Shown: positions 9,832 to 44,297 of the stretch, piece after piece
How positions within the stretch are numbered: position 1 is the stretch's first letter
Layout of the letters: every line of letters begins with the position of its first letter
NCBI RefSeq assembly: GCF_054482595.1
Contig: NZ_CM137008.1
Strand: one strand, 5' to 3'
DNA length: 64,000 nt
Notes under the pieces: generated by a model
Database searches by the model: none
The model's input: only the letters and a program-made list of their open reading frames with translations
Told to the model about the DNA's origin: nothing
Position numbers and translations under genes: made by a program

Positions 9832-12722
<2,891 letters not shown>

Positions 12723-33460: not shown

Positions 33461-33776
33461 TCTTTCCGCGTCTCATCTTTATCGGTGAGACGCACCCTCA
33501 AAATTTCTCCTTCACTCTATAGTCTTTTCGCTTTACTCCCGTTCATTCAACTTAAGTCTCCATATTTTTTACATTACTGCTATCTGTCAGACCTCCGTTT
33601 TTCTGTTGATAAAACACTCTTTTTGACGTTTTTACAGACTAATTGAGCGTGAAGTGTGCAAACGATAAAAGTGTGGGAAAAATTGTTTGACTTATAAGTC
33701 TCAGAAAGTAATATGTGCGCCACGCAGCGACGATGAGCGATAAACAAGTTCTTCGAAGCACTCGTAAGAGGCGTGT

Positions 33777-33869
33777 GGTGAGGTGGCCGAGAGGCTGAAG
33801 GCGCTCCCCTGCTAAGGGAGTATGCGGTCAAAAGCTGCATCCGGGGTTCGAATCCCCGCCTCACCGCCA
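33777..33869 (+). tRNA. serV: tRNA-Ser (anticodon GCU), 93 nt with long variable arm and encoded CCA
   Basis: GGTGAGGTGGCCGAGAGGCTGAAGGCGCTCCCCTGCTAAGGGAG...GGTTCGAATCCCCGCCTCACCGCCA; cloverleaf with GCT anticodon. Confidence 0.93.
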
Positions 33870-33872
33870 TTT

Positions 33873-33949
33873 GCATCCGTAGCTCAGCTGGATAGAGTAC
33901 TCGGCTACGAACCGAGCGGTCGGAGGTTCGAATCCTCCCGGATGCACCA
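33873..33949 (+). tRNA. argV: tRNA-Arg (anticodon ACG), copy 1 of 4
   Basis: GCATCCGTAGCTCAGCTGGATAGAGTACTCGGCTACGAACCGAGCGGTCGGAGGTTCGAATCCTCCCGGATGCACCA; 3 nt after serV. Confidence 0.93.
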
Positions 33950-34085
33950 TATTCTCCGTAACTTTCAGCGATGAAGGTATGGAAGAGGTGGCGGTACTAA
34001 CCGCAGGCACCAGGGAGGATAACGTTGCTTTAGCAACGGCCCGAAGGGCGAGCCGCAAGGCGAGTAATCCTCCCGGATGCACCAT
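33950..34085 (+). repeat. tRNA-operon spacer repeat unit A (about 136 nt) ending in a duplicated tRNA-Arg 3' end
   Basis: GC-rich structured segment ...ccgcaggcaccagggaggataacgttgctttagcaacggcccgaagggcgagccgcaaggcgagtaATCCTCCCGGATGCACCAt; last 17 nt identical to the tRNA-Arg 3' terminus. Followed by a 63-nt unit B (34086..34148). Confidence 0.8.
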
Positions 34086-34148
34086 CTCTTACTTGATACG
34101 GCTTTAGTAGCGGTATCAAAAAATCTGCAGTAAAGTAAGTTTCCCGAT

Positions 34149-34225
34149 GCATCCGTAGCTCAGCTGGATAGAGTACTCGGCTACGAACCGAGCGGTCGGA
34201 GGTTCGAATCCTCCCGGATGCACCA
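34149..34225 (+). tRNA. argY: tRNA-Arg (anticodon ACG), copy 2
   Basis: Identical 77-nt tRNA-Arg sequence. Confidence 0.93.
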
Positions 34226-34287
34226 TCTCTTACTTGATATGGCTTTAGTAGCGGTATCAATATCAGCAGTAAAATAAATTTCCCGAT

Positions 34288-34364
34288 GCATCCGTAGCTC
34301 AGCTGGATAGAGTACTCGGCTACGAACCGAGCGGTCGGAGGTTCGAATCCTCCCGGATGCACCA
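34288..34364 (+). tRNA. argZ: tRNA-Arg (anticodon ACG), copy 3
   Basis: Identical 77-nt tRNA-Arg sequence; preceded by a unit-B-only spacer (34226..34287). Confidence 0.93.
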
Positions 34365-34500
34365 TATTCTCCGAAATCTTCAGCAATGAAGATATCGAAG
34401 AGGTAGCGGAATTAACCGCAGGCACCAGGGAGGATAACGTTGCGCCAGCAACGGCCCGAAGGGCGAGCCGCAAGGCGAGTAATCCTCCCGGATGCACCAT
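34365..34500 (+). repeat. tRNA-operon spacer repeat unit A, copy 2
   Basis: Near-identical to 33950..34085, again ending in ...aATCCTCCCGGATGCACCAt; followed by unit B (34501..34562). Confidence 0.8.
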
Positions 34501-34562
34501 CTCTTACTTGATATGGCTTTAGTAGCGATATCAATATCAGCAGTAAAATAAATTTTCCCGAT

Positions 34563-34639
34563 GCATCCGTAGCTCAGCTGGATAGAGTACTCGGCTACGA
34601 ACCGAGCGGTCGGAGGTTCGAATCCTCCCGGATGCACCA
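34563..34639 (+). tRNA. argQ: tRNA-Arg (anticodon ACG), copy 4
   Basis: Identical 77-nt tRNA-Arg sequence. Confidence 0.93.
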
Positions 34640-34773
34640 TATTCTCCGAAATCTTCAGCAATGAAGATATCGAAGAGGTAGCGGAATTAACCGCAGGCAC
34701 CAGGAAGGATAACGTTGCTTTAGCAACGGCCCGAAGGGCGAACGCCAGTGAGTCATCCTCCCGGATGCACCAT
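34640..34773 (+). repeat. tRNA-operon trailer repeat unit A, copy 3 (diverged)
   Basis: Same unit with substitutions (...gaacgccagtgagtcATCCTCCCGGATGCACCAt) after the last tRNA. Confidence 0.75.
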
Positions 34774-34919
34774 CTTCTCCAAAAAATTTCCTTCAAAAAT
34801 ATCTCATTTCTAAATAACTACTTTATCCATTTCCTGAATTTTCTTCTCCTTCGCCATCAGCGACAAAATCAAGCAATTACGCTAAAGTAGCGTCATATTT
34901 TTCGACTTGCGAGAAGACC

Positions 34920-35486
34920 ATGTACGAGCGTTATGCAGGTTTAATTTTTGATATGGATGGCACAATCCTGGATACGGAGCCTACGCACCGTAAAGCGTGG
35001 CGCGAAGTATTAGGGCACTACGGTCTTCAGTACGATGTTCAGGCGATGATTGCGCTTAATGGATCGCCCACCTGGCGTATTGCTCAGGCAATTATTGAGC
35101 TGAATCAGGCCGATCTCGACCCGCATGCGTTAGCGCGTGAAAAAACAGAAGCAGTAAGAAGTATGCTACTGGATAGTGTCGAGCCGCTTCCTCTTGTTGA
35201 AGTGGTGAAAAGTTGGCATGGTCGTCGCCCAATGGCTGTAGGAACGGGGAGTGAAAGCGCCATCGCTGAGGCATTGCTGGCTCACCTGGGATTACGCCGT
35301 TATTTTGACGCCGTCGTCGCTGCCGATCACGTCCAACACCATAAACCTGCGCCAGACACATTTTTGTTGTGCGCGCAGCGTATGGGCGTGAAACCGACAC
35401 AGTGTGTGGTCTTTGAAGATGCCGATTTCGGTATTCAGGCGGCCCGTGCAGCAGGCATGGACGCTGTGGATGTTCGCTTGCTGTGA
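34920..35486 (+). CDS. yqaB: YqaB, HAD-family sugar phosphatase (188 aa)
   Basis: HAD motif I FDMDGTILDTEP near the N-terminus; recognised context downstream of the tRNA operon. Confidence 0.9.
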   Translation: MYERYAGLIFDMDGTILDTEPTHRKAWREVLGHYGLQYDVQAMIALNGSPTWRIAQAIIELNQADLDPHALAREKTEAVRSMLLDSVEPLPLVEVVKSWHGRRPMAVGTGSESAIAEALLAHLGLRRYFDAVVAADHVQHHKPAPDTFLLCAQRMGVKPTQCVVFEDADFGIQAARAAGMDAVDVRLL

Positions 35487-37548: not shown

Positions 37549-37621
37549 AAAAAGGCCACTCGTGAGTGGCCAAAATTTCATCTCTGAATTCAGGGATGAT
37601 GATAACAAATGCGCGTCTTTC
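37549..37621 (-). ncRNA. micA: MicA (SraD) small regulatory RNA, about 73 nt
   Basis: Minus strand reads GAAAGACGCGCATTTGTTATCATCATCCCTGAATTCAGAGATGAAATTTTGGCCACTCACGAGTGGCCTTTTT, which I recognise as MicA; ends in its hairpin (37554..37571) plus U-run. Lies between gshA and luxS. Confidence 0.92.

Positions 37622-44213: not shown

Positions 44214-44297
<84 letters not shown>

Follow-up and report, generated by a model that had tools for sequence, protein, structure and literature searches.

The tRNA-linked repeats (TLRs) are elements whose 3'-terminal 18-19 bp are identical to the upstream tRNA or rRNA gene, and 22 of them have been described at ten loci of Escherichia coli K-12 (Stenum et al., 2021, PMC8144298). 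The family has been on record since 1978 (Egan and Landy, 1978; Rudd, 1999, both cited there) and is still without an established function, a small open question on which the present case touches. The TLRs are listed as having "no known function", and the sole functional claim made for a tRNA-linked member, a part of RtT in the stringent response, has been retracted (PMC8144298). A strain that lacks all 22 elements, TSS107, has also been constructed (PMC8144298).

The members characterized as RNAs are found in two settings. The RrA, RrB and RrF are 5S-linked TLRs located between terminators T1 and T2 of rrnA, rrnB and rrnD, and their RNAs, which measured about 173 and 115 nt on detection, have a half-life of 2-3 min (Stenum et al., 2021, PMC8144298). 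The 3' end of RrB maps 3 nt past the repeat, and recognition by RNase E was suggested (Stenum et al., 2021, PMC8144298). The relative in the tyrT operon, RtT, is described as released during tRNA processing (PMC8144298), and RNAs of the RtT family are Northern-positive in Actinobacillus.

Here, the spacers of the serV-argVYZQ operon were analyzed in a window of 64,000 nt from contig NZ_CM137008.1 (assembly GCF_054482595.1), where a first-pass annotation had described two repeated spacer units, A and B, without recognising catalogued elements in them. The three copies of unit A are in fact the known TLRs raV, raZ and raQ (PMC8144298). With a high degree of confidence, the locus is read as three such TLRs joined to the tRNA genes by an ordinary linker, and the TLR RNA as most likely a passenger that is processed with the operon or a module for its processing. 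Beyond this identification, the analysis contributes a family-wide structural model, in which the predicted pairing of the tail with an upstream strand closes a multi-hairpin body containing a tandem-G.A helix. It also shows that the tail tracks its own tRNA across the Tyr, Lys, Arg and Pro classes and in genera beyond Enterobacterales, and it describes both intermediates with the module in the T-loop of a partial tRNA copy and free-standing arrays in other Gammaproteobacteria.

Operon Layout and Identity of the Spacer Units

Repeat finding and alignment gave the order argV-A-B-argY-B-argZ-A-B-argQ-A behind serV (Table 1), which bears out the modular layout tRNA-A-B-tRNA-B-tRNA-A-B-tRNA-A proposed at first reading. 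The four tRNA-Arg(ACG) genes are all identical (ARAGORN), and csrA lies immediately 5' of the operon. The promoter match is weak evidence alone, since one site was found against 2.1 expected. On the other side, the 3' flank has a stretch with 28 C and 5 G in 106 nt and ends with a terminator-like hairpin (34879-34893), just after which the start codon of yqaB follows at 34920. No strong intrinsic terminator was seen between raQ and yqaB, and the flank may take part in Rho-dependent or intrinsic termination.

Table 1. Features of the serV-argVYZQ operon, with positions counted from the first base of the window.
Feature	Coordinates	Strand	Description	Basis
Sigma-70-like promoter match	33687..33714	+	5' of serV; TTGACT-16-TAATAT	Consensus scan
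serV	33777..33869	+	tRNA-Ser(GCU)	ARAGORN; Rfam tRNA 56.8 bits
argV	33873..33949	+	tRNA-Arg(ACG)	ARAGORN; Rfam tRNA 67.1 bits
Unit A1 (raV)	33950..34084	+	TLR after argV, 135 nt	Repeat/core matches, fold, Rfam RtT, strain table of PMC8144298
Unit A1, parts		+	5' hairpin domain; closing-helix 5' strand 34007-34020; core 34023-34048	
Unit A1, 3' end		+	19-nt tRNA-identical tail 34066-34084; free ACCA 34081-34084 (predicted)	
Unit B1	34085..34148	+	AT-rich inter-tRNA linker and argY leader, one hairpin, 64 nt	Alignment, fold z = -2.1
argY	34149..34225	+	tRNA-Arg(ACG)	ARAGORN
Unit B2	34226..34287	+	Linker, 62 nt	Alignment, fold z = -1.45
argZ	34288..34364	+	tRNA-Arg(ACG)	ARAGORN
Unit A2 (raZ)	34365..34499	+	TLR after argZ, 135 nt; core 34438-34463; 19-nt tail 34481-34499	
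Unit B3	34500..34562	+	Linker, 63 nt	Alignment
argQ	34563..34639	+	tRNA-Arg(ACG)	ARAGORN
Unit A3 (raQ)	34640..34772	+	Terminal TLR after argQ, 133 nt; core 34713-34738; 18-nt tail 34755-34772	
Operon 3' flank	34773..34893	+	C-rich, G-poor stretch, then terminator-like hairpin	

The unit A is a TLR, and A1, A2 and A3 are raV, raZ and raQ in the nomenclature of EcoGene. All three copies begin one base past the CCA of argV, argZ or argQ, directly 3' of a tRNA gene and on its strand, and their terminal 18-19 nt equal the 3' end of that upstream gene. Both the shared core and the alignment to the Rfam RtT family show kinship with other TLRs. The K-12 catalogue of 22 elements includes them, since the entry "argY/Z/Q, raQ/Z/V" stands among the 22 deleted TLRs in a strain table (PMC8144298); the sites 3' of argV, argZ and argQ correspond to A1, A2 and A3 in K-12 and the window alike, and at this array the window strain differs from K-12 by point substitutions only. 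Because the units are already catalogued under these names, this is a rediscovery and no new element is added to the biology of E. coli. In RefSeq, E. coli genomes (K-12 as well as those annotated by PGAP) leave raV, raZ and raQ unmarked, and together with an Rfam RtT threshold that misses the arg copies, this silence means that automated scans will re-flag them as novel.

The dimensions given earlier needed some correction. The unit A is a true repeat, with 119-125 of 135 positions shared between copies pairwise, and it measures 133-135 nt rather than about 136 nt if its last base is not taken to be the T with which unit B opens. It was called GC-rich, which is only mildly so: its G+C content is 52-56%, against 53% in the window and 32-38% in unit B. 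Likewise, the quoted tail ATCCTCCCGGATGCACCA is an exact copy of the tRNA 3' end but had been counted as 17 nt; the string itself has 18 nt, and the exact identity to the tRNA-Arg 3' end covers 18 nt in A3, whereas in A1 and A2 it is 19 nt long (AATCC...). Three matches to the 26-nt core, CGTTGC-loop-GCAACGGCCCGAAGGG, are present in the window where 0.00 are expected. In A3 the third hairpin is shorter (CGAA-CGCCAG-TGAG) and the tandem G.A motif is retained.

The unit B is an ordinary inter-tRNA linker. Its B1 hairpin architecture is retained in other Enterobacterales with different stem sequences, and the same comparison covers unit B2.

Predicted Fold and Covariation

The inverted repeats noticed within unit A form real hairpins in the folding run, with energies of -47.5 to -60.5 kcal/mol and z-scores of -5.5 (A1), -6.2 (A2) and -3.9 (A3); none of 200 shuffled sequences folded as well. 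The predicted structure has the tail paired to an upstream strand, with three hairpins enclosed and ACCA left single-stranded. The closing helix with its free ACCA would thus imitate the acceptor/T-arm helix of a tRNA, and the tRNA-identical tail can be said, as was first suspected, to act as a pseudo-acceptor end within a structured unit. The same architecture was obtained in every TLR class compared.

Comparison among relatives supports this fold on the transcribed strand. In 28 3' domains of the unit A type, 89.4% of the cells pair, compared with 83.0% after shuffling (0/500 reach the observed value), and the covariation score is 0.129 against 0.056 (0/500), with slid controls at or below 0.057. 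The pair 8-73 in these domains, for example, is U-A in 13 and G-C in 12. The 66 distinct versions of hairpin 3 have an outer pair of C-G (47) or U-A (13), followed by G.A (57) and A.G (61), while canonical pairs, of several types, make up 87-94% at the inner levels and G.U exceeds A.C by about 9 to 3. The invariance of hairpins 1 and 2 in the alignment is uninformative on structure, since the search pattern fixed both. For the closing helix, an anchored test of the 5' strand against its own tail gave 5.26 of 9 pairs versus 4.26 when permuted (0/2000 as high); an unanchored search for a tail complement has a high background, finding about 9 of 13 pairs for any tail. Part of this helix could be due to descent from a tRNA T-stem rather than to selection.

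Relatives and Distribution of the Module

Rfam at its gathering thresholds reports nothing in the arg-operon spacers. Against the RtT family (RF00391), A1, A2 and A3 score 29.1, 26.9 and 22.0 bits over the full length and A1 reaches 34.2 bits in local mode, where the 3' half is near-identical, so that unit A misses the gathering threshold of 45 bits in both modes. The four units in the tyrT operon that carry the unit A core score 133-137 bits, and the lysT operon has the core module after all five of its tRNA-Lys genes with 46.7-60 bits, above the threshold. An exact core of 25-27 nt is common to unit A and the TLRs of tyrT and lysT, and the TLR in the T1-T2 spacer of rrnB has the unit A core with one substitution, the identity between this TLR and the unit A 3' domain being 51%. 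In this shared core, GCCCGAAGGG links a CGUUGC/GCAACG hairpin on its 5' side to another hairpin that contains tandem G.A pairs. Taken with this relatedness, the below-threshold scores indicate that unit A is homologous to RtT and lies outside the operational boundary of Rfam.

A scan of species-representative genomes, mostly Gammaproteobacteria, gave 118 elements with a tRNA at most 700 nt upstream, and in 104 of these the tail is an 18-nt copy of the cognate tRNA with no more than one mismatch. The cognate classes among the tail-matching elements are Tyr, Lys, Arg and Pro. Copies linked to 5S genes were confirmed in L010 and L070. Members of the family follow genes for tRNA-Tyr, -Lys, -Pro and -Arg and for 5S RNA in many genera, some of them beyond Enterobacterales, and the TLRs in arg operons are kept across many Enterobacterales. 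The pseudo-3' end, recurring in related genomes and in other operons, is real and not a chance similarity. Free-standing tandem arrays of the module were also observed in Pseudomonas, Marinobacter, Alcanivorax, Pectobacterium and Stenotrophomonas; on a free-standing Pseudomonas array, the RtT model gave no match even at E up to 10.

Origin and Dynamics of the Array

In evolutionary terms, a TLR would be an incomplete copy of the RNA gene beside it, taken from the 3' part of that gene, with the conserved module inside the T-loop. Only the relatives in Yersinia and Serratia keep positions 22-59 of tRNA-Arg 5' of the module. In long-form TLRs, the 5' strand of the cognate T-stem precedes an internal TTYGA, matching 4.0 of 5 positions against 3.48 (0/5000), and the terminator is duplicated along with the tail. 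For E. coli, a view of the 5' part of unit A as a degenerate tRNA-Arg was rejected, the similarity being no better than in shuffles (z = -1.0 to 0.8), and unit A is called as a tRNA neither by ARAGORN nor by the Rfam tRNA model.

Within E. coli, six arrays show four different A/B arrangements; the terminal unit A is kept in all six, and the internal copies are polymorphic. Array composition would shift through recombination between the repeated tRNA, tail and B segments. The unequal crossing-over that was held to have built the array is supported by the presence or absence of unit A among strains. The tail is not a mere by-product of such local events, as it is a hallmark of the family across many genera, whether the gene concerned is for tRNA-Tyr, -Lys, -Pro or -Arg or for 5S RNA.

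A wider proposal, which we consider improbable, is that the TLR body is an autonomous structured-RNA module of Gammaproteobacteria and not merely a local duplication product. Its free-standing arrays may carry GGA loops that could titrate CsrA/RsmA, and it may on several occasions have settled within T-loops of incomplete tRNA copies and ahead of 5S 3' ends. It may then borrow the 3' end of the host RNA for excision and stabilisation by the tRNA-processing machinery. The arg units may on this proposal be a stripped-down tRNA mimic derived from a mobile or repeatedly recruited RNA domain, whose conserved tandem-G.A hairpin binds some partner.

Processing and Expression

The TLRs are presumably co-transcribed with the tRNAs of the operon. 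The sequence surrounding a tRNA 3' end is repeated without change by the tail (19 nt) and the unit B behind it (about 62 nt), and CCA is followed by UCUCUUAC at TLR ends exactly as after argY. Since the tail and the sequence downstream match this processing context exactly, RNase E and 3' exonucleases would be expected to cut out every TLR, giving RNAs about 135 nt long whose 3' ends resemble those of tRNAs. The view that the tail supplies tRNA-type processing signals agrees with the family proposal of Stenum et al. (2021) and with the mapped end of RrB.

A literature search found no RNA or phenotype findings on raV, raZ or raQ, and as it yielded no reports on their expression or processing, their release as discrete RNAs would rest on analogy with RtT and RrA/B/F. 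Published mentions of argVYZQ contain nothing on the spacers, and a search for rttR with ProQ, Hfq, Grad-seq or RIL-seq gave nothing relevant. The first-pass annotation had proposed the units as candidate processed spacer RNAs, with reference to the stable regulatory fragments of E. coli tRNA-operon spacers. As candidates for processed RNAs they are reasonable by homology to RtT and RrA/B/F. A reading as stable regulatory fragments is not supported: the family has no known function, the RtT claim was retracted, the 5S-linked RNAs are short-lived with modest phenotypes, and the 19 TLRs of tRNA operons score below 0.01 as CsrA binders. Most likely, the RNA of a TLR is a passenger that is processed along with the operon transcript, or a module in that processing, and not a proven regulator.

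Possible Roles of the Arg-Operon TLRs

What the units do for the operon, if anything, can be read in several ways. A role in cis is a possibility to be taken seriously, although we give it less than an even chance: the units would be processing or termination modules, serving as an RNase E entry site, as a shield of the 3' end against exonucleases, as a separator of identical tRNAs or as a positioner of Rho-dependent termination. The exact tRNA 3' context formed by tail and unit B fits such a role, as do the retention of the terminal copy in 6/6 E. coli arrays, the TLR that also ends the tyrT and lysT operons, the C-rich, G-poor stretch after raQ with no strong intrinsic terminator before yqaB, the joint duplication of terminator and tail in long-form TLRs, and the attribution of the repeat to RNase E recognition by Stenum et al. 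(PMC8144298). However, processing evidently runs normally at tRNA-B-tRNA junctions that lack a TLR (argY-argZ; also V-B-Y in the strains that have it), and a TLR is absent from most tRNA operons. It is unlikely that the units act in trans, as regulatory RNAs or sponges of sRNAs or proteins freed from the tRNA precursor, which is the reading of the first-pass annotation, by analogy with 3'ETS-leuZ or with RrA/B/F. Such action would agree with the conserved and covarying structure, its conservation in the arg operons of many Enterobacterales, the in vitro binding of Hfq and CsrA by 5S-linked relatives (PMC8144298), the Northern-positive RNAs of Actinobacillus and the position of csrA directly upstream. 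Yet the only functional claim for a tRNA-linked relative was withdrawn in a family of "no known function" (PMC8144298), the 19 tRNA-operon TLRs fall below 0.01 as CsrA binders, and the GGA motifs of unit A are predicted inside the closing helix and not in loops. In addition, deleting or overexpressing RrA/B/F had modest phenotypes only (PMC8144298), strains differ by gains and losses of internal arg copies, and no partner or target is known. The strain without the 22 TLRs and the polymorphic internal copies argue against an important function of any single copy, and individual internal copies of unit A are dispensable.

Rather doubtful, too, is persistence without benefit to the host, in which a neutral or selfish repeat, as a small mobile or recombination-spread element, landed in the T-loops of redundant tRNA copies and near 5S ends and its RNA is incidental. 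One module recurs in varied RNA-gene contexts and in free-standing tandem arrays of five genera, the Yersinia form looks as if inserted into the T-loop of an incomplete tRNA, and presence/absence polymorphism in E. coli and the existence of a strain devoid of all 22 TLRs (PMC8144298) point the same way. The module is, however, accompanied by no transposase, integrase or terminal inverted repeats, and its core was found in only 3 of 2.9 million viral contigs, all of them with host-type Tyr or Lys arrays, by which a phage-borne or integrative origin was rejected. The tandem G.A pairs, whose opposite-strand counterparts would be mismatches between two pyrimidines, and the G.U excess in hairpin 3 are strand-specific and argue for selection on the transcribed strand, where the helices are kept by compensatory changes. 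Repeats at tRNA-gene att sites of tRNA-targeting integrases typically extend from the T-loop to CCA, and the duplicated segment of unit A runs from the T-loop through CCA. That the duplications are attL/attR scars of an element integrated at the tRNA-Arg T-loop is nevertheless extremely improbable, being effectively refuted by the anatomy of the units: about 116 nt separate the repeats with no integrase gene or conserved ORF, Tyr, Lys, Pro and 5S loci carry this conserved module too, up to five times in one operon, and a 45-65 nt module extends from the T-stem 5' strand to the tail in place of a 7-nt overlap region. Almost no credence is given to the view that unit A encodes a small basic protein, comparable to tpr, the "protamine-like" ORF annotation within the tyrT unit. 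A 42-codon ORF does cross A1 (33979-34107) and is arginine-rich over the core; protein coding was rejected, because the ORF is missing in A2 and A3 (no ATG, in-frame TAG) and its frame through the core differs from that of tpr, and the substitution pattern is that of paired RNA helices.

Comparison With Known Systems

Like unit A, the 3'ETS-leuZ is a non-tRNA part of a polycistronic tRNA precursor that RNase E could release. It differs in that it is not a TLR and has no tRNA-identical tail, and whereas it base-pairs with RyhB and RybB (Lalaouna et al., 2015, as cited in PMC8144298), no such pairing is known or predicted for unit A.

The RrA, RrB and RrF share with unit A a module of hairpin 1, GCCCGRAGGG and a GC hairpin, together with a terminal 18 nt copied from the upstream gene's 3' end. 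What sets the 5S copies apart from unit A is an additional hairpin at the start, with a CGGGA loop, and a hairpin 3 that is Watson-Crick paired throughout and has an AGGA loop. In vitro, both CsrA and Hfq are bound by the 5S copies, whereas the GGA motifs of unit A would be buried in the closing helix, and the TLRs of tRNA operons are, in contrast to the 5S copies, predicted not to bind CsrA.

The RtT RNA (rttR, tyrT-tyrV) is like unit A in its core, closing helix and hairpins, cognate tail and tRNA-TLR-linker-tRNA order. The unit A is a short form, without about 40 nt that comprise a GAACCnn/nnGGTTC hairpin and a GAGCG..CGAGA segment, and it has an unrelated 5' domain, a tail from tRNA-Arg and not tRNA-Tyr, and RtT scores of 22-29 instead of 133-137 bits. 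Compared with the TLRs of K-12, finally, the units of the window are alike in position, strand, tail, core and the presence of copies after argV, argZ and argQ, with no categorical difference.

Organization of the Spacer Units

The E. coli serV-argVYZQ tRNA operon lies on the + strand of the window, with 100% identity to strain XH990 (the best match) and ~98% to K-12. Its four tRNA-Arg(ACG) genes, as called by ARAGORN, are identical in sequence. Repeat finding and alignment gave the order argV-A-B-argY-B-argZ-A-B-argQ-A, which confirms, with small corrections, the modular spacer layout proposed in the first-pass annotation. The A units agree pairwise at 119-125 of 135 positions. Each ends in a copy of the tRNA 3' end, as had been claimed, but the proposed length of 17 nt was wrong: the string quoted has 18 nt, and the identity is exact over 19 nt in A1 and A2 (AATCCTCCCGGATGCACCA) and over 18 nt in A3.

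Features of the serV-argVYZQ array in the window
Feature	Position	Strand	Length	Source
tRNA-Ser(GCU)	33777-33869	+		ARAGORN
tRNA-Arg(ACG) argV	33873-33949	+		ARAGORN
unit A1	33950-34084		135 nt	
unit B1	34085-34148		64 nt	
tRNA-Arg(ACG) argY	34149-34225	+		ARAGORN
unit B2	34226-34287		62 nt	
tRNA-Arg(ACG) argZ	34288-34364	+		ARAGORN
unit A2	34365-34499		135 nt	
unit B3	34500-34562		63 nt	
tRNA-Arg(ACG) argQ	34563-34639	+		ARAGORN
unit A3	34640-34772		133 nt	

The A units are real but already known, as raV, raZ and raQ of the tRNA-linked repeat (TLR) family. In the historical account of Stenum et al. (2021; PMC8144298), TLRs were first described by Egan and Landy in 1978, the 1999 catalogue of Rudd held 22 TLRs at ten K-12 loci, and a claim of 1991, crediting the tyrT TLR with modulation of recovery from amino acid starvation, was retracted in 1994. 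The strain table of the same paper lists an all-22-TLR deletion that includes "argY/Z/Q, raQ/Z/V", which equates A1, A2 and A3 with raV, raZ and raQ. A literature search on raV/raZ/raQ RNA found no published data.

Unit B, with a G+C of 32-38%, is an AT-rich inter-tRNA linker and not part of the TLR. Upstream of it stands a TLR tail or a true tRNA 3' end, and downstream, in every case, a tRNA-Arg gene. Its folding exceeds chance only weakly (z = -2.1 and -1.45), and its plan of TCTnTTAC, a hairpin and then TATCAGCAGTA...CCCGAT recurs in other genera with differing stem sequences.

The csrA gene lies directly upstream of serV, ~300 nt apart on the same strand, in the annotated relatives L123, L125 and L126. 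Downstream of raQ (window 34773-34893), a C-rich and G-poor stretch of 106 nt (28 C, 5 G) is followed only by a weak terminator-like hairpin at 34879-34893, ahead of the yqaB start at 34920. This arrangement would fit Rho-dependent termination, or may permit read-through into yqaB; at tyrT, Rho-dependent termination is described in the older literature. Elsewhere in the window, Rfam gathering-level matches were obtained for the MicA sRNA (37550-37621, - strand, 83.9 bits) and for naRNA4/CssrE, a REP-derived nucleoid-associated RNA (44219-44296, - strand, 76.4 bits).

Conserved Fold of the TLR

The internal inverted repeats noted earlier for unit A are borne out by a strong fold, with z = -5.5, -6.2 and -3.9 for A1, A2 and A3 and none of 200 shuffles folding as well. 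The 3' domain (34006-34084 in A1) is predicted to be closed by a helix of GCACC.AGGGAGGAU (34007-20) with AUCCUCCC.GG.UGC (34067-80), which encloses three hairpins, hp1 (CGUUGC/GCAACG), hp2 (CCC-GAA-GGG) and hp3 (GCC-GCAA-GGC), and leaves the 3' ACCA unpaired. The predicted shape thereby imitates the acceptor/T-arm helix of a tRNA, with a structured insert replacing the T-loop. Local folding of one representative per class gave a common architecture, to which long forms add two hairpins.

Several tests support the fold. Among the matches listed, 28 3' domains of the unit A type (from Arg and short Lys forms) are paired in 89.4% of cells against 83.0% after shuffling (0/500 reach the observed value), and their covariation score is 0.129 against 0.056 (0/500), with slid controls at <=0.057; pair 8-73, for example, is U-A in 13 and G-C in 12 of them. 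Pairing of the nine nt on the 5' side of the GGAU junction reaches 5.26 of 9 positions with the element's own tail, compared with 4.26 for permuted tails (0/2000 permutations as high, among the matches listed). The 5' strand thus tracks the tail, as in CGUGAA/UGCACG (Lys) vs CGUAUA/UAUACG (Amphritea Lys) and GGGA-GGAU (E. coli Arg) vs GGGA-AGAU (Hafnia Arg). Descent from tRNA, instead of selection, could account for the T-stem portion of the closing helix, and the lack of variation in hp1 and hp2 follows from the search pattern, which fixes both.

Hairpin hp3 was read outside in over 66 distinct versions among the matches listed. Its outermost pair is C-G in 47 and U-A in 13; G.A and A.G follow at the second and third positions (57 and 61 versions), then G-C (49) or A-U (11), so that the tandem G.A/A.G is flanked by covarying Watson-Crick pairs, and the inner levels, in which several pair types occur, are canonical in 87-93%. 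On the opposite strand the tandem G.A pairs would become pyrimidine-pyrimidine mismatches, and G.U outnumbers A.C by ~9 to 3 in these versions, which together point to selection acting on the transcribed strand. This strand-specific RNA motif may be a docking site for a protein or RNA. A YGAR...YGAR frame is conserved in hp3 (window 34049-34064, 34464-34479 and 34739-34752).

Distribution and Origin of the Module

Species-representative genomes were surveyed with the shared core CGTTGC-N3-7-GCAACG-R-CCCGAAGGG, which returned at least 120 loci; the listed loci, the window and K-12 tyrT hold at least 163 elements. Among the matches listed, at least 118 have a tRNA gene <=700 nt upstream on the same strand, namely Tyr(GTA) 44, Lys(UUU) 38, Arg(ACG) 20, Pro(UGG) 11, Pro(CGG) 2, Arg(CCG) 2 and Thr 1, and 104 of these 118 copy the 3' end of their own cognate tRNA over 18 nt (<=1 mismatch). 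At least 18 further listed elements end in a 5S-rRNA-type 3' end, confirmed by context at two loci, L010 (5S, element, tRNA-Thr, 5S) and L070. The listed hosts are mostly Enterobacterales, with Gilliamella, Zophobihabitans, Amphritea and Marinobacterium in addition. The refuting case named at first reading, absence of the pseudo-3' end from related genomes, is contradicted by TLR-bearing tRNA-Arg arrays in Enterobacter, Pantoea, Phytobacter, Brenneria, Hafnia and others, where the TLR position varies.

The 5' part of the E. coli arg units is not significantly similar to tRNA-Arg (z = -1.0 to 0.8). The TLRs after tRNA-Arg in Yersinia nurmii (L069) and Serratia grimesii (L063) retain tRNA-Arg positions 22-59 (36/37 identical in Y. 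nurmii) up to ...GGAAGUUCGA, followed by the ~62-nt module, after which the tRNA 3' end (positions 60-77) is duplicated together with the terminator. This shows the module seated in the T-loop of a partial tRNA copy. Among the matches listed, 68 long-form TLRs carry a TTYGA internally, 19-20 nt 5' of the core, and the five nt before it match the 5' strand of the cognate T-stem at 4.0/5 positions (3.48 when permuted; 0/5000 reach 4.0). On both grounds, the most fitting description of the TLR is an incomplete copy of the neighboring RNA gene's 3' part, with its T-loop taken up by a conserved module; from the E. coli arg and short Lys forms, TTCGA and ~20 further nt have been lost.

Free-standing units of ~75-80 nt, 56-72% identical to the body of the K-12 rrnB TLR, also occur among the matches listed, singly or in tandems of 2-4 at loci free of tRNA/rRNA genes. 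They were seen in Pseudomonas (L034, reverse strand, ~10575-10880 in reverse-complement coordinates; L035, L122, L121, L068), Marinobacter (L080), Alcanivorax (L053), Pectobacterium and a relative (L050, L099) and Stenotrophomonas (L003, L026). Their plan is [A-run hairpin, CGGGA loop]-[CGTTGC/GCAACG hairpin]-GCCCGAAGGG-[GC hairpin, AGGGA/AGGA loop]-A-run. Since both loops hold GGA, a CsrA/RsmA-type motif, arrays of these units may serve as Csr/Rsm sponges. No Rfam family covers the units. The Pasteurellaceae RF02902 (Aggregatibacter sRNA 22) may be a TLR relative, with weak matches to unit A (16.8 bits, window 34001-34095, +) and to a Pseudomonas unit (22.3 bits, L034 3758-3844, -).

Array Variation and Possible Function

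The 1.2-kb query is held nearly whole in one piece by 3,715 of 5,425 matching E. coli genomes. Four variant arrays were inspected (V, Y, Z and Q for the arg genes): V-A-B-Y-B-Z-B-Q-A in strain E06, V-B-Y-A-B-Z-A-B-Q-A in S1-IND-01-A, and V-B-Y-B-Z-A'B-Q-A in NCCP 13946 and strain 121. All keep the four tRNA-Arg genes; the spacers differ. The 102-nt A'B spacer between the third and fourth genes (L124 860-961, NCCP 13946; L126 1059-1160, strain 121) fuses ~40 nt of unit A, only its 5' hairpin, to unit B, with module and tail deleted and a compensatory change of CTTCA/TGAAG to CATCA/TGATG. The polymorphism across the six E. coli arrays compared fits exchange between repeated tRNA/tail/B segments, in keeping with the unequal crossing-over first envisaged.

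Position, tail identity, family membership, conserved fold and array polymorphism rest directly on this analysis. As for mechanism, the TLRs would be transcribed within the serV-argVYZQ precursor. The tail together with the sequence after it (CCA-UCUCUUAC..., exactly as found downstream of argY) would reproduce a tRNA 3' processing site, so RNase E and 3' exonucleases would be expected to release each TLR as a ~135-nt RNA, made similar to a tRNA end by its paired tail and its ACCA overhang.

Among the functional readings, we tentatively place a cis role in processing or termination first. A terminal unit A is present in all six E. coli arrays, and RrB, a 5S-linked TLR RNA, ends 3 nt past the repeat, for which RNase E recognition was invoked by the authors (PMC8144298). 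The variation among strains shows that internal unit A copies are dispensable; neutral or selfish persistence seems rather unlikely to us. We regard trans-regulation by TLR RNA as improbable. The 5S-linked rrA, rrB and rrF are transcribed via T1 read-through, and their processed RNAs of ~173 and ~115 nt have a half-life of 2-3 min; in vitro these bind Hfq and CsrA, their phenotypes are only modest, and the CsrA-binder score is <0.01 for the 19 tRNA-operon TLRs (PMC8144298). In Actinobacillus, Rfam RtT matches beside Asn- and Lys-tRNA genes were Northern-positive (Rossi et al., 2016; PMC4986893).

Other readings were rejected. Coding is contradicted by a 42-codon ORF of A1 that is missing from A2 and A3 and by a core frame differing from tpr, and an attL/attR scar by the ~116 nt between repeats, which hold no integrase, and by the presence of the module at many loci. 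Against phage carriage, the core occurs in only 3 of 2.9 million viral contigs, all with host-type arrays. One viral contig (L130, IMGVR_UViG_2660238126_000002, reverse strand ~239) has a tyrT-type TLR whose truncated 5' side adjoins unrelated sequence, which may be a prophage or rearrangement breakpoint inside the TLR. As known elements, the arg-operon TLRs have low discovery value; the remaining interest lies in TLR function and the side observations, chiefly the set of free-standing units at 68-72% identity to the rrnB TLR.

Relation to RtT and Other K-12 Copies

The Rfam scan of the window at permissive thresholds gave full-length RF00391 (RtT RNA) matches to A1, A2 and A3 at 29.1, 26.9 and 22.0 bits, below the gathering score of 45 bits, and 34.2 bits for unit A in local mode, where its 3' half is close to the RtT consensus (AACGUUGC-loop-GCAACGGCCCGAAGGGCGAG...CGAGUAAUCC). 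In the lysT operon of K-12, the module and an exact 18-nt tail come after each tRNA-Lys gene, in four cases as a short form like unit A and, behind lysQ, as a long form that includes a duplicated terminator; between T1 and T2 of rrnB, the spacer holds the module with an 18-nt copy of the 5S 3' end. The five Lys copies reach 46.7-60 bits with the RtT model, above threshold, which makes the arg copies divergent short members missed by the Rfam cut-off. In the lysQ TLR (L127 2154-2309), hairpin 1 is swapped for GCCGC-TC-GCGGC, GCCCGAAGGG and hairpin 3 are retained, and the lysQ terminator is duplicated past the tail.

K-12 RefSeq annotates rttR and tpr at the tyrT locus and no feature in the arg spacers. 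The tyrT locus is built like the arg array, with tyrT, an RtT-like unit, a short linker, tyrV and three further RtT units, all four units scoring 133-137 bits with the RtT model. The two differ at the 3' terminus, which is the tRNA-Arg 3' end in unit A and the tRNA-Tyr 3' end in RtT.
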